Shown here: positions 1,908-39,326 of the stretch, piece by piece
How the letters are laid out: the number at the start of each line of letters is the position of its first letter
Position numbering within the stretch: the stretch's first letter is position 1
Sequence record: SRR20825010_1490
Direction: 5' to 3' (one strand)
DNA length: 39,367 bases
The notes under the pieces: generated by a model
What the model was told of the DNA's origin: nothing
Seen by the model: only the letters and a program-made list of their open reading frames with translations
The model's database searches: none
Made by a program: the position numbers and the translations under genes

Positions 1908-2333
1908 ATGGGAGCTACAAATACCGTAATTACTACATGGAAAAAGAACATGCAATTTCATTCAACAAATCCAGCAGGCGATTTAATTATTGATGCTAGT
2001 CCTGAAGATGGTGGAAATGGCGATGGACTAAGGCCTAAGGCGTTAATGCTTTCTGCATTGGCAGGATGTTCTGGGTTGGATGTAGCTTCATTAATTAAGA
2101 AAATGAAATTGGAAGTAGACGATTTCAGAATAGATATTATTGCAGAACTTACCGATGAGCATCCTAAATATTATCATAAAGTAAAAGTAGAATATCACTT
2201 TTATGGAGCTGCTTTAGATGAAAAAAAATTACAGAGAGCAGTAGATCTTTCCGTAGAAAAATATTGTGGTGTAATGGAAATGTTTCGTCAATTTGCAGCA
2301 ATGGAAATTGAAACTACGTTTCATTCAGCATAA
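1908..2333 (+). CDS. OsmC/YhfA family protein
   Basis: G.RPKALML.ALAGCSG.DV and LS.EKYCGV two-Cys OsmC motifs. Confidence 0.9.
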   Translation: MGATNTVITTWKKNMQFHSTNPAGDLIIDASPEDGGNGDGLRPKALMLSALAGCSGLDVASLIKKMKLEVDDFRIDIIAELTDEHPKYYHKVKVEYHFYGAALDEKKLQRAVDLSVEKYCGVMEMFRQFAAMEIETTFHSA

Positions 2334-2417: not shown

Positions 2418-4109
2418 ATGACTCGTTGGACTGTAAAAGCATCACATAATAAAGAAGCTATTAACTCACTTTCAGAAACATTGGGAGTGGATACTGTTAT
2501 TGCTAGTTTACTTTTACAAAGAGAAATTACAAATTATGAAGAGGCAAAAAAGTTTTTTCGCCCTTCTTTGAGTCATTTACACGATCCTTTTTTGATGAAG
2601 GATATGGAAAAAGCGGTATCTAGAATTGAAAAGGCAATTGCCGAAGGAGAGAATATTTTAGTGTATGGAGATTATGATGTGGATGGAACTACGGCAGTTT
2701 CTTTGATGTCGTCTTACCTTTTAGAAGCATATCCAAATGTGGCAACATATATTCCAGATAGGTATAATGAAGGATATGGTGTTTCTTATCAAGGAATTGA
2801 TTTTGCAGATGATAATGGCTTTACCTTAATTATAGCACTAGATTGTGGCATTAAAGCTGTAGATAAAGTAGCTTATGCCAAAGAAAAAGGAATCGATTTT
2901 ATAATTTGCGATCACCATAGACCAGGTGATGTAATTCCAGATGCGGTAGCTATTTTAGACCCTAAACAAGACGATTGTAACTATCCATACGACGAACTTT
3001 GTGGTTGTGGAGTTGGGTTTAAATTAATCCAGGCTTTGGGTACAAAAGCTGGAAAAACAATCCTTGATTTTATTCCGTATTTAGATTTGGTGGCTACTGC
3101 TATTGGTGCCGATATTGTGCCTATAACTGGAGAAAATAGAGTGCTGGCTTATTTTGGGTTGAAGGTTATAAATGACAATCCCAGAGCTGGAATTAAAGCA
3201 ATTATCTCCAAACACCTTAAAAAGAGATTAACTATTACCGATGTTGTTTTTGTAATAGCTCCTCGGATAAATGCAGCTGGAAGAATGAAACATGGGTTGC
3301 ATGCAGTGCAACTTTTAACAGAGAAAGATTTTGAAACAGCGCAAAGTTTTGCTGAAGAAATAGATATTTTTAATTCGGATAGAAAAAGCTTAGATAAAGA
3401 AATAACGAAAGAAGCGCTTCAGCAAATTATAGATAATAAAGAAGAAGATAAATTTACTTCGGTAGTTTATAATGAAGGTTGGCATAAAGGTGTTATCGGA
3501 ATTGTAGCTTCAAGACTTATAGAAACTCATTATAGACCTACTTTAGTATTTACAAAAAGTGGCGAAAAACTTGCTGCTTCAGCCCGTTCGGTAAAAGGTT
3601 TTGATGTTTATAATGCTATTGAAGCTTGTGAAGATTGTTTGGAGCAATTTGGAGGACACAAATATGCGGCAGGACTTACTTTAAAGCCGCAGCAATATGA
3701 AGCTTTTAAAACAAAGTTTGAGAAAGTAGTTTCGGAAACTATTGACACAAAACTTTTAACTCCTGAAATTATTATTGATAGTGAGCTTAATTTAGACCAA
3801 ATTACACCTAAGTTTTATCGTATTTTAAAACAATTTGCTCCATTTGGCCCAGGGAATTTATCGCCAGTGTTTCTTACCCAAAATTTAAAAGATACAGGAT
3901 ATAGCAAATGTGTGGGACAAGATGATGCACATTTAAAAATAAGCGTATCTCAAAATGGAAGTCCTTCTATTAATGGAATTGGTTTTAATCTTGGAGATAA
4001 AATAGCAAGGATTAAAAACCAACAAACATTTTCTGCTGTGTATGCTATTGATGAAAACGAATGGAATGGAAATATTTCCCTTCAACTTAAATTAAAAGAC
4101 ATCAAATAA
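2418..4109 (+). CDS. recJ: ssDNA-specific exonuclease RecJ
   Basis: YGDYDVDG, DCG, DHH, PRINAAGR, GVIGIVASRL, SARS and FGGH..AAG motifs. Confidence 0.97.
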   Translation: MTRWTVKASHNKEAINSLSETLGVDTVIASLLLQREITNYEEAKKFFRPSLSHLHDPFLMKDMEKAVSRIEKAIAEGENILVYGDYDVDGTTAVSLMSSYLLEAYPNVATYIPDRYNEGYGVSYQGIDFADDNGFTLIIALDCGIKAVDKVAYAKEKGIDFIICDHHRPGDVIPDAVAILDPKQDDCNYPYDELCGCGVGFKLIQALGTKAGKTILDFIPYLDLVATAIGADIVPITGENRVLAYFGLKVINDNPRAGIKAIISKHLKKRLTITDVVFVIAPRINAAGRMKHGLHAVQLLTEKDFETAQSFAEEIDIFNSDRKSLDKEITKEALQQIIDNKEEDKFTSVVYNEGWHKGVIGIVASRLIETHYRPTLVFTKSGEKLAASARSVKGFDVYNAIEACEDCLEQFGGHKYAAGLTLKPQQYEAFKTKFEKVVSETIDTKLLTPEIIIDSELNLDQITPKFYRILKQFAPFGPGNLSPVFLTQNLKDTGYSKCVGQDDAHLKISVSQNGSPSINGIGFNLGDKIARIKNQQTFSAVYAIDENEWNGNISLQLKLKDIK

Positions 4110-4362
4110 GAGCAATCTAATTTTATCTTTTTCTGCTTATCATTTAACTTCAATTTATAGTATTTTACATATTTCAGTATTAGTTTTAAAAGAAGAAATA
4201 GGATTTGCATAATTACGATTAAATTCTATATCTTTAGAAGAAGTTATGTTTATAATTGTAAGGAATTGATAGTTACTTCGACTATTATTAAGTATCAAAT
4301 AAGTCGAGATACCAAAATTTCATTAAGAACATTTTTAACCAATAAAGAAAGGACACTACAGT

Positions 4363-4821
4363 ATGTTAACTTGGAAAGACGTTATTAATTTTTCTGTAAA
4401 AGGGAATCCAAAGCCAGACAGGCGTGTTGAAAAAACAGAGGCAGAATGGAAAGAAATACTCACACCAGAACAATATAGAATAACACGTTTAAAAGGCACG
4501 GAAATGGCACATTCGGGTGCTTTATGTTCTATTTATGATGCTGGACAGTATAATTGTGTATGTTGTGATACACCTTTGTTTGATTCTACCATAAAATACG
4601 ATTCGAGTTCTGGATGGCCAAGTTTTACACAACCAATAAAAGAGAATGCTATTAAATATATAAAAGATAGCTCCTTTGGAATGGTACGTGTAGAAGTTTT
4701 GTGTAATACTTGCGATGCGCATCAGGGACATGTTTTTCCAGATGGTCCAGAACCAAGTGGATTACGATATTGTATAAATTCAGCATCAATTAAATTAGAA
4801 AGGAAAGAAAATGACAACTAA
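4363..4821 (+). CDS. msrB: Peptide-methionine (R)-S-oxide reductase
   Basis: GTE, CxxC...CxxC Zn ligands, GWPSF, GHVFPDGP and RYCINS motifs. Confidence 0.97.
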   Translation: MLTWKDVINFSVKGNPKPDRRVEKTEAEWKEILTPEQYRITRLKGTEMAHSGALCSIYDAGQYNCVCCDTPLFDSTIKYDSSSGWPSFTQPIKENAIKYIKDSSFGMVRVEVLCNTCDAHQGHVFPDGPEPSGLRYCINSASIKLERKENDN

Positions 4822-5362
4822 AAAATTAGAATTAGCAACAATAGGTGGCGGATGTTTTTGGTGTATTGAAGCAGTTTTTCAAGAAGTTGCAGGGGTAGAA
4901 AAAGTTGTTTCTGGTTATACAGGGGGTAATGCTCCTGGAAAACCTACTTACCGGGAGGTATGTTCTGGACTTACAGGGCATGCGGAGGTAATACAGATAA
5001 GCTTTGACCCACAAGTTATTTCTTATGATGATTTGTTAGTTATTTTTATGACAAGTCATGATCCAACAACCATGAATCGTCAAGGAGCAGATGTTGGTTC
5101 TCAATACCGTTCGGTTATTTATTATCATAATGAGGAACAAAAGAAAATTGCCGAAGAAGTAGCAAAGCAAATAGCACCTTATTATGAAGATGAGATTGTT
5201 ACAGAAATTAGTCCGATAGGAGCGTTTTTTGAAGCGGAGGAGTATCATCAAGATTACTATAAAAATAATCAAACACAAGGTTATTGCAGTGCTGTAATAA
5301 CTCCAAAATTGGCAAAACTACGTAAAATGCATGCCGATAAATTAAAAAAGGCGGCTTCGTAA
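4811..5362 (+). CDS. msrA: Peptide-methionine (S)-S-oxide reductase
   Basis: GGGCFWC, PTY.EVC...TGHAE, RQG.D.G.QYRS and AEEYHQDYY motifs. Confidence 0.97.
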   Translation: MTTKKLELATIGGGCFWCIEAVFQEVAGVEKVVSGYTGGNAPGKPTYREVCSGLTGHAEVIQISFDPQVISYDDLLVIFMTSHDPTTMNRQGADVGSQYRSVIYYHNEEQKKIAEEVAKQIAPYYEDEIVTEISPIGAFFEAEEYHQDYYKNNQTQGYCSAVITPKLAKLRKMHADKLKKAAS

Positions 5363-5430
5363 TTTTTAGTACTAATACCTCATAAGCTTATTTTATATTG
5401 AGGGAATTTACTTAGATTATTTAACATTTT

Positions 5431-5465
5431 AAGCACCTAAGAGTTTATCTTTTAGGTGCTTTTTA
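5431..5465 (+). terminator. Intrinsic terminator after msrBA
   Basis: Stem AAGCACCTAA(5431-5440)/TTAGGTGCTT(5452-5461) followed by a T-run. Confidence 0.7.
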
Positions 5466-5508
5466 TTCCAAATAAGTGTAATCATTTTAAAAAGAAAGGG
5501 AATGAATA

Positions 5509-6000
5509 ATGAGCAATCAAAATGAAGACAAAACAATATTTAATGCTCCAGCATTTGATGTAAATTTATGGATAGATGCTGATGGAAATAAAACAAATCC
5601 CATTGAGTTGTCCGATTTTCAAGGAAAATTCAAAGTAATATATTGTTTTCAAAGTTGGTGTCCAGGCTGTCATAGTCAGGGACTTCCAGCCTTACAGAAA
5701 ATGGTAGAAGCATTAAAAAACAAGGATGAGGTAGAATTTTTAGCCATTCAAACCGTTTTTGAAGGACATGATGCTAATACTTTTGAAAAAATGGTAGAAA
5801 CGCAGGCTAAATACAATTTAAAGATTCCTTTTGGACATGATCCTGGAGATGAGACTACAGGAAATCGTTCTAAAATCCTAACTAATTACCAAACGGGGGG
5901 AACACCTTGGTTTATTTTTATTGATAAGCATGATAAGGTAGTTTTTGCAGACTTTCATTTAAATGTGGAGAATGCGATTGAATTTTTAAAAACAGTTTAA
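5509..6000 (+). CDS. Thioredoxin-fold redoxin (AhpC/TSA/TlpA-like)
   Basis: FQSWCPGCH active site, QTVFEG and GTPW cis-Pro motif. Confidence 0.85.
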   Translation: MSNQNEDKTIFNAPAFDVNLWIDADGNKTNPIELSDFQGKFKVIYCFQSWCPGCHSQGLPALQKMVEALKNKDEVEFLAIQTVFEGHDANTFEKMVETQAKYNLKIPFGHDPGDETTGNRSKILTNYQTGGTPWFIFIDKHDKVVFADFHLNVENAIEFLKTV

Positions 6001-6536
6001 TGAAAAAAAATATTCCTATAATTAAATTATACGGAGCAGAAGGTTGTCATAAAACGCGCTACTACCAATTATTGTTGGAAGCGCGTGGACTTCCTTTTCA
6101 ATTTTTGGATGTAGAAAAAAATGAAGATTATGCTGAGGAACTAAGAAGTTTGTATGAATCTGGGAAATTAAATTTTCCAACAATTACAATTGGATCAAAA
6201 AAGTTGAGAAACCCTAATAAAGAGGAACTCAATAAATGGATTAATAAGCTAATACCGTCAATTTTGGATGTACAACATGATAAAGTAAATAATGCGTATC
6301 TTTTAGCTATTAATGAGGAAATAGCAAAAGTTGAATATCAACTTAAAAATGGTAAAATGTATTTAATTCATTCTGAAGTTCCGATACAATTAAGAGGTAG
6401 AGGAATAGGAAAAGAATTGGTAGAAAAAACATTTGAAAAATTAACTAAAGAAGGTTATAAAGCAGTTGCCGTTTGTTCTTATGTTAAAGCTGTAGCTAAG
6501 AGAAGTGATAAATGGAAAGAAATAATAGAATTTTAA
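6000..6536 (+). CDS. Glutaredoxin-like domain fused to YjdJ-type GNAT domain
   Basis: N-half has LYG..GCHKT...LDVE...NFPTI (Grx fold). C-half has HSEVP..LRGRGIG..LV and ..CSYV (YjdJ-type GNAT). Confidence 0.75.
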   Translation: MKKNIPIIKLYGAEGCHKTRYYQLLLEARGLPFQFLDVEKNEDYAEELRSLYESGKLNFPTITIGSKKLRNPNKEELNKWINKLIPSILDVQHDKVNNAYLLAINEEIAKVEYQLKNGKMYLIHSEVPIQLRGRGIGKELVEKTFEKLTKEGYKAVAVCSYVKAVAKRSDKWKEIIEF

Positions 6537-6540
6537 AAAA

Positions 6541-8112
6541 GTGAATACTATACAACTAAACATACAAGATACTTTTAATAAAGAACTCCCAGCAGACCCT
6601 ATTTTAGAAAATTCAAGAAGGCAAGTTAAAGAGGCTTTCTTTTCATATGTTACTCCCAAAAAAACGACAGCGCCAGCGTTACTCCATGTGTCGGATGCTA
6701 TGTTGCAAGCGCTTGGGATATCTGAGGAGGAAAAAAAATCGGATGCTTTTTTAAAAATTTTTACTGGAAATGAGGTGTTGGATAACACCAAGCCTTATGC
6801 TATGTGCTATGGCGGACATCAATTTGGGAATTGGGCAGGACAACTTGGAGATGGTCGCGCTATTAACCTTGGAGAAGTAGTTCACAATAATAAGCGGTGG
6901 GCAATCCAATTAAAAGGGGCTGGAGAAACGCCATATTCTAGGTCTGCTGACGGACTTGCAGTATTGCGTTCTTCAATTCGAGAATATTTGTGTAGCGAAG
7001 CAATGTTTCATTTAGGAGTTCCAACAACAAGAGCCTTGTCTCTTGCGCTTACTGGAGATGAGGTATTAAGAGATGTGCTTTATAATGGAAATCCAGCTTA
7101 TGAAAAAGGGGCTGTAGTTTGTAGGGTTGCACCTTCATTTATACGATTCGGGAATTTTGAAATTTTTGCAGCAAGGGGAGATCATGAGAGTTTAAAAAAG
7201 CTAGCCGACTATACCATAAAACATTTTTATCCGTATTTAGGTACTCCTTCAAAAGAGGTTTATATTCAGTTTTTTAAAGAAGTAGCAATCCAAACTTTAG
7301 AAACGGTTTTGCATTGGCAACGAGTTGGCTTTGTACACGGAGTTCTTAATACAGATAATATGTCTATTCTAGGTCTTACCATAGATTATGGGCCTTATGG
7401 TTGGCTTGAAGGATTTGATTTTGGATGGACGCCCAATACAACAGATGCTACTAATAAAAGATACCGTTTTGGAAATCAACCAAATATTGGACTTTGGAAT
7501 TTGTATCAGTTGGCAAATGCTATTTATCCGTTAATTGATGAAGTAGAAGGGTTAGAAAAAATACTAAACGACTATAAGGTAGATTTTGAAGAAAAGTCAT
7601 TAGACATGATGCGAAGTAAGCTTGGATTAGAGCAAAAGGAGGAGGAAGATTCTCGTTTAATTCTTCAATTAGAAGAAAATTTAGAATTATCAGAAACAGA
7701 CATGACGATTTTTTTCAGAAATTTGAGTAAATTTACGAAAGAAAAAAATGGGTGTGGGGTAGACATAGTAAAAGAGGCTTTTTATTCTTCGGAAGAAATT
7801 CAAGGAGAAATTCTTGAAAAATGGAACACTTGGTTTACTTTTTATAGAAACCGATTGAAAAAAGAGCGCTTATCTGATGAAGCTAGAAAAGAGAAAATGA
7901 ATAATGTAAACCCTAAATATGTATTGAGAAATTATATGGCTCAACTAGCAATAGAGAGTGCCGATAAAGGCAATTATTCTTTGATAGAAGAGTTATATCA
8001 ATTACTAAAAAAACCGTATGATGAACAACCAGACAATGAGAAATGGTTTGTTAAACGCCCTGAATGGGCACGCCATAAAGTAGGTTGTTCCATGTTATCG
8101 TGTAGTTCTTAA
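6541..8112 (+). CDS. selO: Protein adenylyltransferase SelO/YdiU
   Basis: YGGHQFG...QLGDGRA, QLKGAG.TPYSR.ADG.AVLRSS.RE, HGVLNTDN, IDYGPYG, NPKY.LRNY and C-terminal CSMLSCSS. GTG start. Confidence 0.95.
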   Translation: MNTIQLNIQDTFNKELPADPILENSRRQVKEAFFSYVTPKKTTAPALLHVSDAMLQALGISEEEKKSDAFLKIFTGNEVLDNTKPYAMCYGGHQFGNWAGQLGDGRAINLGEVVHNNKRWAIQLKGAGETPYSRSADGLAVLRSSIREYLCSEAMFHLGVPTTRALSLALTGDEVLRDVLYNGNPAYEKGAVVCRVAPSFIRFGNFEIFAARGDHESLKKLADYTIKHFYPYLGTPSKEVYIQFFKEVAIQTLETVLHWQRVGFVHGVLNTDNMSILGLTIDYGPYGWLEGFDFGWTPNTTDATNKRYRFGNQPNIGLWNLYQLANAIYPLIDEVEGLEKILNDYKVDFEEKSLDMMRSKLGLEQKEEEDSRLILQLEENLELSETDMTIFFRNLSKFTKEKNGCGVDIVKEAFYSSEEIQGEILEKWNTWFTFYRNRLKKERLSDEARKEKMNNVNPKYVLRNYMAQLAIESADKGNYSLIEELYQLLKKPYDEQPDNEKWFVKRPEWARHKVGCSMLSCSS

Positions 8113-8126
8113 CCAAAAATAAAAAA

Positions 8127-8531
8127 ATGAAAACAACCGTATTAACACTATTACTAATAGTTATGACCAATGCTGAAGGAATTGCTCAAAAAGGAAATCA
8201 ATGGGTAGATAAAGTATATAGTATTAGAGGGAATTGGAGCGTTCAGAAAGAAAATAAAGAGATGTACTTTGTACTTGGAGGGGATTTTTACACCTTGGCT
8301 GGTCCAGATTTGAAGTTATATCTCTCTCAAAAAGAGATGAGTGAAATTAACAACAGAGATGCTATCGACAAAGAAGGAGGCGTTTATGTTGCAAGCTTAA
8401 AGTCGAATAAAGGGGCGCAGAAGTATAAATTTCCGCCAGAAGTAAATATAGCAGACTATAAATCTTTGGTAATACATTGTCAAAAATTTTCAGTTGTTTG
8501 GGGAGGTATTGATTTAATGGATGAAGAGTGA
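8127..8531 (+). CDS. DM13 domain protein, secreted
   Basis: Signal peptide; GPDL.LYLS, LK...G.Q.Y and VIHC..F.V.WG motifs. Confidence 0.8.
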   Translation: MKTTVLTLLLIVMTNAEGIAQKGNQWVDKVYSIRGNWSVQKENKEMYFVLGGDFYTLAGPDLKLYLSQKEMSEINNRDAIDKEGGVYVASLKSNKGAQKYKFPPEVNIADYKSLVIHCQKFSVVWGGIDLMDEE

Positions 8532-8773
8532 TACTTGAAAAAATAAAAAATTTACCTCTTGGTTATTCTGAAGTTGAATATCAACAGAAAAAATATGGAG
8601 TAACTAGAGCCGATTTTAATGATGGTAAAAGCATTAAAATCTATGCTAAAGAGCTTGGAGGAAATGATTTTATTAGTTTGAATTACTATATAACAAGTAA
8701 ATCTGAAAATTTAAAACCTTGTGAAATGCCTGAACAAAAAGTGATTCATTTTTTAAATAATTATAAAGGGTAA
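8528..8773 (+). CDS. Small conserved protein with LKPCEMP motif (Msr-cluster associated)
   Basis: 81 aa; GTGA overlap with the DM13 gene; ELGG.DFISLNYY and LKPCEMP..KV motifs. Confidence 0.7.
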   Translation: MILEKIKNLPLGYSEVEYQQKKYGVTRADFNDGKSIKIYAKELGGNDFISLNYYITSKSENLKPCEMPEQKVIHFLNNYKG

Positions 8774-8799
8774 AAATTAAAAAAACAATAATAATTAAA

Positions 8800-9093
8800 A
8801 TGAAATACAGAGCAAGTTGGAATGGAGAAATTTTAGCTGAAAGTAGTGAGATTAAAGAGATAGAAGGAAATAAATATTTTCCTCAGAATAGTCTTAACAA
8901 ACAATTTTTTAAGGAAACAGAAACACATACTACTTGTTCTTGGAAAGGAAAAGCATCTTATTTTAATATTGATGTAGCTGGTAAGACTAATAAAATGGCT
9001 GCATGGTATTATCCAAATCCAACGCCATTGGCAAAAGAAATTAAAGATTATGTAGCCTTTTGGAAAGGGGTAGAAATAACAGAAGAAGGATAG
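8800..9093 (+). CDS. DUF427 family protein
   Basis: EGN.YFP, C.WKG.ASY, AAW.YP.P and I..YVAFW motifs. Confidence 0.9.
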   Translation: MKYRASWNGEILAESSEIKEIEGNKYFPQNSLNKQFFKETETHTTCSWKGKASYFNIDVAGKTNKMAAWYYPNPTPLAKEIKDYVAFWKGVEITEEG

Positions 9094-9096
9094 TAA

Positions 9097-9600
9097 ATGA
9101 ATAAAATAGCACTTAGCGGGAGCTGTTATTGGTGTATGGAAGCTATTTACCAGTCGCTTGTAGGAGTGAAAAAAGTAGCGCAGGGGTTTGTAGCCTCAAA
9201 AGAGTATAAAGACCAATTTTCTGAGGCTATTATTGTTCATTTTATTCCAGATGAAATTTCTTTGAAAACGCTTATAGAAATTCACTTACATACCCATAAA
9301 AGCACTGTTAATCATAGTTGGAGAGATGCTTATAAATCTGCAATCTATACTTTTTCAGAAGAGCAGAAAGATAAATCGATGGAGGTTTTAGAGTTGTTAC
9401 AGAAAGAATTTTCAGAAGAAATAATTACCAAGGTATATAGTTTTGAAAGCTTTAAACCTTCTGAAGAAATGTTTCATAATTATTATTTCAGTAATCCAGA
9501 AAAGCCGTTTTGTAAAAGCTATATCAATCCTAAATTGAAAAAGTTATTAAAAGAATTTTCTGAATTTACAAATAAAGAAAAGTTAGAAAGCACTTTATAA
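9097..9600 (+). CDS. Divergent second MsrA-family protein
   Basis: GSCYWCMEA, Y.SAIY and HNYY..NP...FC motifs. It lacks the PTY..VC..TGH and RQGxDxG segments. Confidence 0.85.
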   Translation: MNKIALSGSCYWCMEAIYQSLVGVKKVAQGFVASKEYKDQFSEAIIVHFIPDEISLKTLIEIHLHTHKSTVNHSWRDAYKSAIYTFSEEQKDKSMEVLELLQKEFSEEIITKVYSFESFKPSEEMFHNYYFSNPEKPFCKSYINPKLKKLLKEFSEFTNKEKLESTL

Positions 9601-9658
9601 AACTGATATATGCAAGCCTTATCGAGGGATTTATTATAGCCAAAATAAATGCTTCCAC

Positions 9659-9698
9659 AAAAGGAGATGAATAAAGCGAAGGCTTTTTAAGAGGTAGT
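9659..9698. repeat. Decayed intergenic repeat copy
   Basis: 9659-9690 matches 32290-32320 at 29 of 32 positions. It is followed by GAGGTAGT, whose reverse complement occurs at 2352-2359. Confidence 0.6.
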
Positions 9699-9758
9699 GC
9701 TTGAGTACTTAATTATGTAATATTCTAAAAAATAAATGTTTAACTTAATTTTATTCGT

Positions 9759-10985
9759 GTGAAAAATTCAAAGCTAGATATTATTAATAAAAAGGGATAT
9801 AAGTTACAAGCTTATTTAGAGCTTCCTGCAAACCAAAAACCTAATTATTATGCAATTTTTGCGCATTGTTTTACATGTAACAGCAGTTTTGGTGCAGTAC
9901 GTAATATAAGTAGGTCGCTTACAAATTTTGGCTTTGGAGTAATACGTTTTGATTTTACGGGTTTAGGACGAAGTGAAGGAGAGTTTGCGGAAAGTCACTT
10001 TTCTGCAAATGTTGATGATTTGCTGGCTGTGAATCAGTTTATAAAAGAAAATTATGCCGAACCTTCACTACTGGTAGGTCATTCTCTTGGAGGGGCAGCG
10101 GTTTTAGTGGCTGCATCTATGTTGAATTCGGTAAAAGCGGTAGCAACTATTGGGGCACCAGCTTCGATTTCCCATGTTAAGCAGTTGTTTTCTCATCAAA
10201 TTGAAGACATAGAAAAGAAAGGAGATATTGAAGTAAACATTGGAGGGAGACCTTTTACAATTGACAAGGATTTTGTGGAAGATTTTGATAAGAAAAACCT
10301 TCCAGAAATTGTAAAATCCTTAAGAAAGCCTTTATTAATTATGCATGCTCCTTTTGATAAGAAGGTTGGGATTGAGAATGCACAAGAATTGTATCATAAT
10401 GCAATGCATCCAAAAAGTTTTATCAGTTTAGATGATGCAGATCATCTTTTGTCGGAGACGAAAGATAGTGAGTATGCAGGAAATATAATTGGAATGTGGA
10501 CACAACGTTATTTCTCTTCAGAAGAAAATAAAATGTTAAGTCCAAATGGCGAGCAATTGGTAGCTCATTTAAACTTAAAAGAAGATAATTTCACTACTAA
10601 TATTCAGACGAAAAATCACGCCTTTATTGCAGATGAACCCCAAAGTTTTGGTGGAGATGATTTTGGGCCAGGTCCCTACGATTATTTAAGCGCTGGATTG
10701 GCTGCTTGCACAACCATGACGATAAAACTTTATGCAGAAAGGAAAGGATGGCCGCTGGAAGAAGTATTTGTATATATAACACATTCAAAAAAACACAGCG
10801 ACGATTTAAAGGTAGATGTAGAAAAACCTGGACGGATTGATTATTTATCCAAGAAATTAAAATTTGTAGGAAATTTGGATGAAACCCAACGGAATAAATT
10901 AAAAGAAATTGCCTCGAAATGTCCTGTTCATAGAACATTACAGAATGAAGTGATTATTGAAACAGAAGAAATTAAAAATCAATAA
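9759..10985 (+). CDS. Bifunctional alpha/beta hydrolase::OsmC protein
   Basis: [16 protein letters not shown] and GHSLGG nucleophile. C-terminal ADEP...GG.D.GP, LAACT and KCPVH.TL (OsmC). GTG start. Confidence 0.92.
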
Positions 10986-10988
10986 AAA

Positions 10989-11264
10989 ATGAAAGAAAGT
11001 ATTGTTGATAGTGTAAAAAGGTATTTTAAGAGTAAAGAAAATAATGATTCTGTAGGGAAATCTCCAGAAGGAATTTGCCCAAACTGTTGGGGAAGCCAAG
11101 AATGGGAAGGGCAGTTTTATGAGCTTATGAGAGCCAAAGACGTAAACCCACTTCATGATAATTATAATAATTTCATCAAAGAATTTGTTACTCAACATAT
11201 AAGTGGTATTATTTTGGACGAACACACGTATACATGTGTTACATGCCAAATAAAGTATGATTAA
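10989..11264 (+). CDS. Small hypothetical protein with CPNC...CVTC
   Basis: 91 aa, tightly coupled to both neighbours, with two CxxC pairs. Confidence 0.75.
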   Translation: MKESIVDSVKRYFKSKENNDSVGKSPEGICPNCWGSQEWEGQFYELMRAKDVNPLHDNYNNFIKEFVTQHISGIILDEHTYTCVTCQIKYD

Positions 11265-12226
11265 TGAGTGGAAATAAGACAAAAATAGGTTTAGGTTTAG
11301 CAGCGCTTGGACGTCCAGAATATATTAATGTAAATAATTCGGTTGTAGATAATAAGTCAGAAAAAGCTTTTAAAAATAATGCATTTGAAGTTTTAGATCA
11401 AGCTTATAAATTGGGAATTCGTTATTTTGATACTACTCCTTCTTACGGAAAGGGAGAAGCTTTTTTGTATGAATGGAATGTTAAACACGGCTACACAGAT
11501 GTTGTTTTGGGCACTAAATGGGGCTATACATATATGGCAGATTGGGAACTTGGATATGCTGGAAAACATGAAATTAAAGAACATTCTTTATCAAAATTAA
11601 CCGAGCAATGGGAAGTTTCTAAAGTGTTATTACCACAGCTTAAGTATTATCAAATACATTCCGCTACCTTAGAAAGTGGGGTTTTATTCAATAAGGACGT
11701 TCTAGTTAAGCTTTCTAAATTAAAAAGAGAATTTGGATTAAAAATAGGCTTAACATCTAGCGGAATTAATCAATCTGAAGTTATAAAAACTGCATTAAGT
11801 TTAGAGATAGATGGTTTAGAATTATTCGATAGCTTTCAAGTAACATATAATATATTTGAACAGAGTGTTTTCAATATTTTAAAGGACGCAATAAAGAAAC
11901 AAAAAACTGTTATTATAAAAGAAGCTTTGGCCAATGGAAGAGTTTTTAAGAATGAGAGTTATCCACATTATTCTGATTTATATGAGCTTTTAAAAACACT
12001 TTCTAAAAAATATAATGTAGGGTTGGATGCCATTGCTTTGCGTTATGTTATGGATAGTATAGAACCTTCCATTGTTTTGAGCGGAGCCTCTTCTAAGTTT
12101 CAATTAATAGATAATTTGAAAGCATATACTTTTGAATTATCTGAAGCGGAAATTGCACTATTAACTAAGCATAAAATTGCTGTAAATGAATATTGGGAGG
12201 AAAGAGCTAAGTTAGATTGGCATTAA
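11264..12226 (+). CDS. Aldo/keto reductase
   Basis: GLGLAALGRP, YFDT..SYG..E, TKWG, YQIHS, Q.TYN and VLSGA...QL..N motifs. Confidence 0.9.
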   Translation: MSGNKTKIGLGLAALGRPEYINVNNSVVDNKSEKAFKNNAFEVLDQAYKLGIRYFDTTPSYGKGEAFLYEWNVKHGYTDVVLGTKWGYTYMADWELGYAGKHEIKEHSLSKLTEQWEVSKVLLPQLKYYQIHSATLESGVLFNKDVLVKLSKLKREFGLKIGLTSSGINQSEVIKTALSLEIDGLELFDSFQVTYNIFEQSVFNILKDAIKKQKTVIIKEALANGRVFKNESYPHYSDLYELLKTLSKKYNVGLDAIALRYVMDSIEPSIVLSGASSKFQLIDNLKAYTFELSEAEIALLTKHKIAVNEYWEERAKLDWH

Positions 12227-12233
12227 GAATGAA

Positions 12234-13295
12234 TTACCGATTAACCCATTCTTTTATAATTTTATTAATTTCACCACTTTCCTTTAGTCTTAATATTTCA
12301 ATATCAATCTGTTTTTTTAATGCATTTGCTTCAGGAAAAGCAAAGCCATAATGTTGAGGTAAAATACCCTTTTTACTTAAAAGAAACCCTTCTTTTTTAC
12401 TATTCTTAAAGATGTGTTCTAAGGGTACAATATCATAAACTAATGCATCTACATCACCATTTATTAATTTTTTATAACCTTCCTTGGCATTTGTTACAAT
12501 TACCGTTTCTCCTCCAAAGATATTAATATTGTCTATTAACTTTTGATTGGATGGCACGGCAACTTTTTTACTTTCAAGATGTGTAAGAGAAGTAATAGTT
12601 TTTCCTTCCTTGGATGTAATTGAGAGCGTTGTAGCAATTCCAGCCACAAAAGAAGTAGCCATAATAAGAGATATAATCATCCAGCTTCCTATAATAAACC
12701 TACCTAAAATGGTTTTTGGAGCATAATCACCATATCCAACAGTTGTCATCGTTACAATAGCAAGCCAAATGCCAGTTCCTATTCCTTTTATAGCACTATC
12801 ACCATACTCTGCTCCCATATGTTTTCCTTCGGCAAGCCAGAATAATATTCCAACAATGGTAAGTACCAATAGCAAACCAAGTACGGCATACAAAAAAGTT
12901 GTACTAAAAAATGGCTGAATACGTTCCCAAAAAGTTAAATCTAGTACAGGAGCTAGAATAGCCATTTCTGTATCAAAATAAGGCTGAGAGAAAGTAGCAT
13001 GTTGAGCCCGATTAGAATTAATGGTTATTGGGCCAATAAAAACATCAATTTTATTGTTTTTTACTGCAAGTAAGCCAGAATCAATTGTTTTGTATGGATA
13101 TAGCTTATATTTAAAATCTTCATTAAATGCTATTTCTCGCCACACATCTACAATTATTCCTTTTGGAGTTTCATTAGTATATACAAAAGGCTCAGACCCA
13201 CCATAACCAACCCGTAAAATACTGTCGTTAACCGATTGTGGATATAAGTTAAGAATGCTTATAGCGGATAAAAGTAAAAAGAAGAGAAAGCGCAT
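12234..13295 (-). CDS. Solute-binding domain + K+ channel pore fusion (GluR0-like ligand-gated channel)
   Basis: Order is signal peptide, SBP family-3 half (EPF...ITI...R...FSQPY), TM1, pore TMTTVGYGD, TM2, second SBP half (YGFAFP...G....I..EW). Confidence 0.9.
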   Translation of the reverse strand: MRFLFFLLLSAISILNLYPQSVNDSILRVGYGGSEPFVYTNETPKGIIVDVWREIAFNEDFKYKLYPYKTIDSGLLAVKNNKIDVFIGPITINSNRAQHATFSQPYFDTEMAILAPVLDLTFWERIQPFFSTTFLYAVLGLLLVLTIVGILFWLAEGKHMGAEYGDSAIKGIGTGIWLAIVTMTTVGYGDYAPKTILGRFIIGSWMIISLIMATSFVAGIATTLSITSKEGKTITSLTHLESKKVAVPSNQKLIDNINIFGGETVIVTNAKEGYKKLINGDVDALVYDIVPLEHIFKNSKKEGFLLSKKGILPQHYGFAFPEANALKKQIDIEILRLKESGEINKIIKEWVNR

Positions 13296-38681: not shown

Positions 38682-39326
38682 ATGGATGAGTTGTTCGATC
38701 AGTTGGAGTTTATTGAAAACCCACTATATGAATCAATTATTGAGGATCTTTTGGAACAACAGTATAGCGTTGTAGATAATTTCTTTTCTGCTGAGGAAGT
38801 TTTTTTACTTAGGGCTTCTTTGTTGGATAAATATGAAGAAGACAAGTTTAAAAAGGCAGCTATTGGAAATAAGTTTGAAGAGCAAATAATAAAATCTATC
38901 CGTGGGGATTTTGTGCTTTGGATAGATGAAAAAAATAGTAATTCTGCTGAAAAGCTTTTCTTTAATAAAATTAATAGTCTGATTGATTATTTAAATAAAA
39001 CCTGTTTTTTAGGGATTTTGCATAAAGAATTTCATTATGCAATCTATCCTGAAGGTACTTTTTATAAGCGACATTTAGATACTTTTCAGAACGATGATCG
39101 CCGAAAGCTTTCTTTTGTTTGTTATTTAAATGATGAAGATTGGAAGAATGAAAATGGAGGAGAACTTGTTATTTATAAAGATGAGAACGGACTAGAAGTT
39201 CCAAAAAATTTATATCCACTTCCTGGGCGAGTTGTAATTTTTGAAAGTCAGCTATTAGAACATGAGGTAAAAACTGTACTCGCTTCCGAAAGATATAGTA
39301 TAACAGGTTGGTTGAAAACAAGATGA
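38682..39326 (+). CDS. 2OG-Fe(II) oxygenase (prolyl hydroxylase-like)
   Basis: IRGD...W, Y.RHLD, YLN..W....GGEL, HEV and RYSITGW motifs. Confidence 0.92.
   Translation: MDELFDQLEFIENPLYESIIEDLLEQQYSVVDNFFSAEEVFLLRASLLDKYEEDKFKKAAIGNKFEEQIIKSIRGDFVLWIDEKNSNSAEKLFFNKINSLIDYLNKTCFLGILHKEFHYAIYPEGTFYKRHLDTFQNDDRRKLSFVCYLNDEDWKNENGGELVIYKDENGLEVPKNLYPLPGRVVIFESQLLEHEVKTVLASERYSITGWLKTR

Follow-up and report, generated by a model that had tools for sequence, protein, structure and literature searches.

A putative mosaic of oxidative-damage repair genes around selO in a Galbibacter-like flavobacterium

SelO is among the most widely conserved kinase-fold enzymes, and work on its targets in bacteria and on its control is still under way. 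A 39,367-nt stretch of DNA (record SRR20825010_1490; this whole stretch is hereafter called the window) carries selO inside a run of twelve genes at 4363–12226, here called the island, which raises the question of whether such a run constitutes one machine dedicated to the repair of oxidized proteins, as the original prediction proposed, or a looser assembly. Our analysis indicates that the island is probably the richest instance, among the loci compared, of a mosaic neighbourhood for oxidative-damage repair that centres on SelO in Bacteroidota, rather than a fixed twelve-gene machine. The mechanism that we propose for it draws on family knowledge, gene adjacency and domain fusions.

Cysteine-rich genes around selO

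The ORF list places 12 open reading frames (ORFs) in the island, all on the + strand, and Pfam and NCBIfam profiles (the NCBIfam equivalog cutoffs are quoted in bits) returned the identities predicted for them. Every cysteine motif named in the original prediction was found in the translations, and the genes do mostly abut or overlap: nine of the 11 junctions overlap or span at most 26 nt, and the remaining two are gaps of 146 and 158 nt. Cysteine accounts for 1.44% of the residues of the island proteins versus 0.67% for the other 20 window ORFs, and CxxC motifs occur in 6/12 island proteins versus 3/20 of the others. The window SelO shares 99% identity with a protein whose name gives Galbibacter orientalis DSM 19592 as its source; the host is therefore assigned as a marine, Galbibacter-like flavobacterium, with a window G+C content of about 33%. 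NCBIfam gave no match for the DM13, 81-aa, DUF427 or 91-aa protein of the island, and matches to its (seleno)protein models were weak, scored well under the cutoffs in every case, and were set aside. The search for RNA elements in the window returned no Rfam match at the gathering threshold and no tRNA by ARAGORN.

By its sequence features, the selO product is assigned as a protein adenylyltransferase with a pseudokinase fold. Its scores lie far above the PF02696 cutoff of 22.8 and above that of NF000658, and it misses two lineage-specific SelO equivalogs (NF040880, 403 vs 900; NF045949, 438 vs 850). Residues 21–517 align to PDB 6EAC (E 1.2e-102), with LKGAG, HGVLNTDNMS and IDYGP falling on the same segments of 6EAC and invariant in a SelO alignment of 20 rows. 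We take LKGAG, HGV.NTDN and D[FY]G to be the nucleotide-binding and catalytic segments of the pseudokinase fold, with residue roles presumed accordingly. The C-terminus GCSMLSCSS is likewise invariant in 20/20 rows.

A functionally linked thiol/methionine repair neighbourhood around SelO is supported by the comparisons set out below. In the mechanism that we propose, methionine sulfoxide would be reduced by the methionine sulfoxide reductases (Msr), namely MsrB, MsrA and a divergent MsrA paralogue, which would be recycled via cysteine relays formed by a CPGC redoxin, a C-H-K-T glutaredoxin (Grx)-like domain and an 81-aa domain. Electrons for these relays would come from reductases or a low-molecular-weight thiol encoded elsewhere, the latter probably of the bacillithiol type, as in Polaribacter (PMC6282198). 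Organic peroxides and aldehydes would be cleared by OsmC and the aldo/keto reductase. SelO would AMPylate one thiol protein and thereby tune de-thiolation under stress, comparable to the action of E. coli SelO on GrxA, the adjacent Grx-like protein being the first candidate target. The msrBA pair would be transcribed from a promoter of the extracytoplasmic function (ECF) sigma type and end at a hairpin.

The selO neighbourhood among relatives

Relatives were the best 80 of at least 600 stretches from species-representative genomes, with SelO identities of 50–71%; Galbibacter, Joostella and Mariniflexile were not among these 80 SelO loci, which are cited below by L numbers. They were compared by tblastn with the window proteins, ORF clustering and Pfam scans of representatives, counting 14 tracked families within 3 kb of selO and on its strand; some loci are short, and absence from those is uninformative. 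Differing subsets of the families lie beside selO in 30/80 loci, all 30 from Bacteroidota. MsrA is present in 22 loci, MsrB in 15, hydrolase-OsmC in 7, Grx-like in 6, DUF427 in 5, GNAT_CG and the 81-aa domain in 4 each, redoxin, the 91-aa protein and the aldo/keto reductase in 3 each, and DM13 in 1. Two further families recur near selO and are missing from the window, the monothiol bacilliredoxin BrxC (5 loci) and EgtB/EgtD (4). The recurrent core in relatives is msrB-msrA-(monothiol Grx-like gene)-selO, and lineages add to it redoxin, GNAT, 81-aa, DUF427, divergent MsrA, hydrolase-OsmC, 91-aa and aldo/keto reductase genes or, elsewhere, BrxC or EgtB/EgtD. For example, in L006 (13904-16060), L008, L011 and L047, the ergothioneine-synthesis proteins EgtB (FGE-sulfatase and DinB_2 domains) and EgtD (Methyltransf_33) are encoded after DUF427 and hydrolase-OsmC in the stretch immediately following selO, and an FMN_red gene lies in the same stretch of L006 and L011.

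The association decays steeply with distance. Tracked families reach a density per 100 kb surveyed of 44.5 within 1 kb of selO, 9.5 at 1–3 kb, 3.3 at 3–6 kb and 0.4 at 6–10 kb, a drop of about 100-fold that acts as an internal control and is somewhat inflated, because families such as BrxC, EgtB and the standalone Grx entered the tracked set after being seen near selO. The recurrence of redox and repair genes near selO in Bacteroidota thus far exceeds random placement, in line with table S9 of ProFaNA and with what had been predicted.

Such recurrence could also arise if independent oxidative-stress genes pile up beside selO as in a hot spot, perhaps under shared regulation, with no specific relation to SelO. 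In marine Flavobacteriaceae the flanks are conserved, and the cassette after selO varies by genus and is redox-related in most; the variation fits a hot spot, as do the non-redox XdhC and MobA genes found there in L005, L009 and L036, the many SelO loci without any of the genes, the breaks within the window island, the many substrates of E. coli SelO (PMC12663964) and the variation of the neighbourhood by taxon (PMC3281104). We nevertheless consider it unlikely, since the steepness of the decay speaks against it, as does the position of the Grx-like gene, which directly precedes selO in most lineages having it, whether standalone, split or fused, and belongs to a protein type that is a demonstrated SelO substrate elsewhere (PMC12663964). 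The 81-aa gene, which immediately follows selO in Flavobacteriaceae as well as in L019, a Saprospiraceae locus, argues in the same direction.

How the linkage arose was assessed on a SelO tree of 80 rows (FastTree). The minimum number of changes almost equals the number of occurrences for the 81-aa gene (5/5), GNAT (5/5), redoxin (4/4), Grx (6 for 7) and hydrolase-OsmC (5 for 8), counts that poor FastTree resolution would inflate. The linkage thus does not go back to a single inherited arrangement and reflects repeated gain or repeated loss.

Several further results weigh against the island as one specific system, and the original prediction has to be narrowed accordingly. The complete twelve-gene set recurs in 0/80 loci, the next richest of which have 6 tracked families, and 50/80, including all 14 proteobacterial loci and all 3 from Acidimicrobiia, are without any tracked family; the predicted gene-neighbourhood signal thus stands for subsets and fails for the full set, with accessory genes patchy on the tree. 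No NAD(P)H-linked disulfide reductase was found by Pfam among the island proteins, so the claim that the island is self-contained fails for its electron supply. The island is broken up by a terminator-like hairpin after msrA and by two gaps, each of about 150 nt, and an ECF-like motif in the window precedes msrB alone among the island blocks. Judged by its N-terminus, the DM13 protein looks exported, so that not all island products may share a compartment. Co-orientation is weak evidence, because 16/20 non-island ORFs of the window also lie on the + strand, and any single ProFaNA listing is weak alone, because 4,848 domains are listed there as over-represented near SelO (PMC10364804).

Most pairwise links of the island were already known from earlier surveys of SelO neighbourhoods. 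Dudkiewicz et al. (2012) reported msrB as enriched around bacterial SelO (corrected p 5.9e-10) and proposed a link to oxidative stress, with msrA enriched in uncorrected statistics only (PMC3281104). The main-text SelO section of ProFaNA (2023) names none of the island families; its table S9 lists as over-represented SelR (2973), PMSR (610), Aldo_ket_red (271), OsmC (219), Glutaredoxin (198), Acetyltransf_CG (101), DUF427 (76), Methyltransf_33 (50), PF11009 (13) and DM13 (7) (PMC10364804). Both works offer only pairwise statistics and describe neither the composite cluster, nor a Grx-GNAT fusion before selO, nor the domain fusions (PMC3281104, PMC10364804). The 81-aa and 91-aa proteins, which have no Pfam family, are invisible to a Pfam-based survey such as ProFaNA (PMC10364804). 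A search of the literature outside subscription journals found no paper describing the composite cluster or the 81-aa family. The combination can therefore still be called undescribed as a cluster, and no longer for msrB and msrA or for most of the pairs.

Methionine sulfoxide reductases and candidate thiol partners

MsrB carries two CxxC zinc motifs and the cysteine of RYCINS, and MsrA is of the GGGCFWC type, its gene overlapping msrB by 11 nt. Both canonical enzymes pass the equivalog cutoffs with their catalytic cysteine motifs present. The divergent MsrA falls below the TIGR00401 cutoff, passes the Pfam PMSR domain (cutoff 23.7), keeps the GxCxWC cysteines and, in the alignment, has 10-residue and 4-residue deletions within conserved MsrA segments. 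Lacking these two segments and failing TIGR00401, it would also suit an island that handles low-molecular-weight sulfoxides and thiols (free methionine sulfoxide, ergothioneine, bacillithiol derivatives) instead of proteins, with the divergent MsrA, DUF427, GNAT, hydrolase-OsmC and aldo/keto reductase acting as metabolite enzymes. GNAT proteins, aldo/keto reductases and alpha/beta hydrolases are typical small-molecule enzymes, DUF427 is of no known function (PMC4287342), and the four loci with EgtB and EgtD after DUF427 and hydrolase-OsmC point the same way. Weighed against canonical MsrA and MsrB scores far above the equivalog cutoffs, redoxin relatives that sit beside exported MsrBA fusions, as fits protein repair, and the fact that SelO modifies proteins (PMC12663964), a metabolite-directed island appears quite improbable.

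For protein repair centred on SelO, the redoxin is a candidate reductant of the Msr enzymes; it has a thioredoxin fold with WCPGC and is without a signal peptide. The msrAB-trx-ccdA-modRS locus of Fusobacterium nucleatum, in which Msr genes and a thioredoxin-fold reductant are induced as an oxidative-stress unit (PMC9239216), offers a parallel, as Msr genes are clustered with a thioredoxin-fold protein in the window too. F. nucleatum has a CcdA-type membrane electron conduit and a two-component regulator, both absent from the window island, which adds SelO, GNAT, DUF427, OsmC and the 81-aa domain and whose versions are without signal peptides (PMC9239216). In L049 (5844-7631) and L080 (7023-8712), a redoxin of the window's family stands with a fused MsrB-MsrA, both with lipoprotein-type signal peptides. 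Judging from the signal peptides, this appears to be an exported form of that pairing, and it parallels the F. nucleatum locus (PMC9239216). Three MsrA-type genes, a Transglut_core2 protein, GNAT and BrxC also occur around selO in L049 and L080.

The gene directly 5' of selO encodes a monothiol Grx-like domain (G-C-H-K-T, with an FPT cis-proline motif) joined to a minimal GNAT with a conserved CSY. The Grx-like domain barely passes Pfam Glutaredoxin (26.0 vs 22.9), lies far below every cutoff of the NCBIfam Grx-like models, and lacks the dithiol CPYC active site of glutathione-dependent glutaredoxins. The single-cysteine G-C-H-K-T site is present in 6/7 Grx-bearing alignment rows, L036 being without it. 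The fusion occurs in the window and L007, and in L026 its halves are encoded by two neighbouring genes immediately before selO. In the 3 kb upstream of selO and on its strand, 5 loci have a standalone Grx, which is next to selO in 4 of them, and 3 have a standalone GNAT. Standalone Grx-like genes are found upstream of selO in L001, L005, L009 and L036, adjacent to it except in L009, where a homologue of the 91-aa gene lies between the two. The Grx-like gene of L036 (9767-10007) matches in two pieces with the cysteine motif missing and looks disrupted. A SelO and Grx-GNAT complex prediction run without alignments (score 0.00, mark 0.34) is evidence neither way.

The closest functional precedent is in E. 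coli, where SelO AMPylates grxA, sodA, acnA and sucA and RNase Z reverses the AMPylation (PMC12663964); the AMPylation of glutaredoxin invoked by the original prediction is thus demonstrated there. The window resembles this cycle in that its SelO conserves the nucleotide-binding and catalytic segments and a glutaredoxin-type gene adjoins selO. It differs in that the neighbour is a monothiol C-H-K-T domain fused to GNAT, not a CPYC glutaredoxin (PMC12663964), and no RNase Z gene was seen in the Pfam results for the window. The host, moreover, probably uses bacillithiol-type thiols and not glutathione, by analogy with Polaribacter, in which N-methyl-bacillithiol is present (PMC6282198).

The second candidate partner is the 81-aa protein, for which Pfam and NCBIfam scans gave no match. 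It has 291 close homologues, with 60–85% identity across genera in the alignment, and its family comprises at least 369 representative clusters at 50% identity and E <= 0.001. The conserved cysteine ([P/S/A]-C-E-M) is kept in 139/150 representatives, the other 11 being fragments. In the AlphaFold2 model (predicted local distance difference test score, pLDDT, 95.9), a helix, five strands and a second helix follow one another, with the cysteine just before the last helix. Foldseek with this model found no PDB match at E <= 0.001; the best candidate, Ivy (E 0.12, TM 0.59), was rejected as a fold relative and read as shared topology only. A profile search of PDB sequences gave no match (best E 0.73), and the ESM Atlas returned the protein's own family alone.

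Domain fusions are more informative. All six 81-aa representatives of at least 150 aa were scanned, and 5/6 contain a second domain. A divergent MsrA-type domain precedes the 81-aa domain in P0269 and P0278 and a divergent MsrA follows it in P0296, so that the fused MsrA occurs in two orders; in L036, as in P0296, the 81-aa domain comes first, and the MsrA fused to it is of a third type. P0271 joins a C-H-K-S glutaredoxin to it, and in P0377 it is joined to GNAT. The MsrA half of P0269 shows gapless identity of 39% to the divergent MsrA of the window vs 28% to the canonical one, and between the Grx half of P0271 and the window Grx domain the identity is 42%. The 81-aa protein is thus best described as a putative undescribed domain with a conserved cysteine, linked by fusions to MsrA, Grx and GNAT, and this ties a protein of no assigned family to the pathway, as had been predicted. 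In their sources, many of the standalone members go by the name 'peptide methionine sulfoxide reductase' despite having no Msr domain, probably because of the MsrA fusions; a widespread small family is therefore labelled Msr in annotation without an Msr domain.

With selO between a Grx-like gene and a cysteine domain fused elsewhere to MsrA or Grx, the island provides a short list of candidate SelO partners. We tentatively suggest, as a possibility with more doubt than support at present, that the 81-aa protein may be an undescribed redox family whose Cys65 serves as a thiol relay or resolving partner of MsrA-type reductases, together with the C-H-K-T Grx-like domain and GNAT, and that SelO may AMPylate a member of this set as a switch. 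If true, a physiological SelO circuit would thereby be defined for the first time in a bacterium free of glutathione.

Transcription units, accessory genes and flanks

The features of the island are collected in Table 1.

Table 1. Features of the island and its upstream motif, in window coordinates
Feature	Position	Strand	Basis
Candidate alternative-sigma (ECF-like) promoter, GTAAGG-N17-CGACTA	4258..4284	+	Motif recurrence before msrB; putative function
msrB	4363..4821	+	SelR 160.8 bits, 1.5e-47; TIGR00357 178.1 vs cutoff 113.05
msrA	4811..5362	+	PMSR 213.8 bits, 1.8e-63; TIGR00401 201.1 vs cutoff 108.1
Terminator-like hairpin	5431..5461	+	13-pair stem, then TTTATT
Redoxin, WCPGC	5509..6000	+	AhpC-TSA 3.8e-13, Redoxin 6e-13
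Glutaredoxin-like + Acetyltransf_CG (GNAT) fusion	6000..6536	+	Pfam; alignment
selO/ydiU	6541..8112	+	PF02696 430.5 bits, 1e-128; NF000658 574.4 vs cutoff 431
DM13-domain protein	8127..8531	+	Pfam DM13 2.9e-15
81-aa protein, LKPCEM, Cys65	8528..8773	+	Family by homologue search; no Pfam/NCBIfam match
DUF427 protein, TCSWKG	8800..9093	+	PF04248 4.8e-30
Divergent MsrA paralogue, GSCYWC	9097..9600	+	PMSR 75 bits; TIGR00401 63.6, below cutoff 108.1
Alpha/beta hydrolase (GHSLGG) + OsmC fusion	9759..10985	+	Hydrolase_4 3.9e-15, OsmC 2.7e-15
91-aa protein, CPNC...CVTC	10989..11264	+	No Pfam/NCBIfam match
Aldo/keto reductase	11264..12226	+	Pfam 5.7e-21

The hairpin, a long stem followed by a T-run, lies within the 146-nt gap after msrA, and the 158-nt gap precedes the hydrolase-OsmC gene. 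As the terminator scan overall gave 5 sites vs 4.2 in shuffles, a total no better than chance, the case for the hairpin is built on its stem length and position. A sigma-70 scan was likewise no better than chance, with 43 sites vs 36.0 (sd 6.0) in shuffles, Bacteroidota promoters being outside its models. About 80 nt upstream of msrB, the motif GTAAGG-N17-CGACTA is a candidate ECF-like promoter. The strict form GTAA-N16-20-CGACWA occurs in the 200 nt before msrB in 10/16 cases (15 loci and the window), with a mean of 0.024 matches and a maximum of 1 in 500 shuffles, and the window holds 2 matches vs 0.29 expected. The motif was also sought before the redoxin and hydrolase-OsmC genes and was not found there. 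Given the hairpin, the 158-nt gap and a motif before msrB only, the sequence probably comprises three transcription units, msrBA, redoxin to the divergent msrA (seven genes), and hydrolase-OsmC to the aldo/keto reductase, instead of a single one.

The msrB motif resembles the Caulobacter sigmaF promoter, GTAACC-N16-CGAA (PMC3511200). ECF-sigma control of msr genes is also represented by Neisseria Ecf, which controls msrAB, as cited in PMC3511200, and by H. influenzae RpoE2 (PMC7907618). Unlike in those systems, no sigma or anti-sigma genes were seen in the window or the loci. On the evidence of this cluster, marine Flavobacteriaceae may have an ECF-type regulon that includes msrBA. A GTAA-N-CGAC[AT]A motif is found as well before a conserved ORF of some 795 aa without a Pfam domain (L004:5628-5654, L006:6094-6120, L011:6091-6117), with looser forms in L036 and L047; this ORF may be in the same regulon as msrB.

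Among the accessory genes, the DM13 protein begins with MKTTVLTLLLIVMTNAEGIAQ, which by eye, with no predictor, reads like a signal peptide, which does not support a single compartment for all island products. There is a 4-nt overlap between its stop and the start that follows, and L080 has a second DM13 downstream of selO. DUF427, which adjoins selO in 5/80 loci, has a beta-tent fold, seen in MsrB too, without significant sequence similarity (PMC4287342). The C-terminal half of the hydrolase fusion matches PF02566 (57 bits vs 27.5), has two cysteines in AACTT and KCPVH, and is assigned as OsmC/Ohr peroxiredoxin-like; its homologues beside selO (7/80 loci) are 62–72% identical. A standalone OsmC-like gene at 1908-2333 (+), just upstream of recJ (2418-4109) and two genes before the island, may be an outlying island member.

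For the 91-aa family, 12 clusters were found, and P26, C30, P31, N32, C33, W34, G35, Q37 and C83 are invariant. The best AlphaFold2 model has a pLDDT of 83.9 (64–76 for the other four). Foldseek gave no fold match (best E 1.5), and the ESM Atlas returned unnamed Bacteroidota clusters only. DUF5100, matched by the L007 homologue (E 1.6e-4, 22 bits, under the cutoff of 27), was set aside. The protein lies beside selO in 3/80 loci. The aldo/keto reductase contains no cysteines, and its start overlaps the preceding stop; homologues of 52–62% identity are downstream of selO in L001, L004 and L057.

The flanks hold further genes. The window recJ marks the upstream edge of the island, and recJ is directly upstream of selO in L060 (8220-9965; Methyloprofundus); a PIN-domain gene (409-822) and a UDG-superfamily gene (1151-1726) lie further upstream in the window. 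In L047 (7569-8942, -), a protein with HD and PycTM domains (Pycsar-effector type) is encoded on the opposite strand just upstream of msrB, and its family occurs in 13 loci of marine Flavobacteriaceae. In the Flavobacterium loci L041 (7790-10005) and L045, two genes of the sulphur-transport family, one for an HMA metal-binding protein, and yaaA, a peroxide-stress gene, precede selO and BrxC follows it. Abutting the island end in the window is a gene at 12234-13295 (-) for a prokaryotic ligand-gated ion channel of the glutamate-receptor-like type (SBP_bac_3, Lig_chan, Ion_trans_2). Further downstream, at 15960-38585 (+), is a polysaccharide utilization locus with SusC-like, SusD-like, pectinesterase, two GH28, GH43, GH95, GH3 and esterase genes, which looks pectin-directed and is followed by a 2OG-Fe(II) oxygenase gene at 38682-39326.

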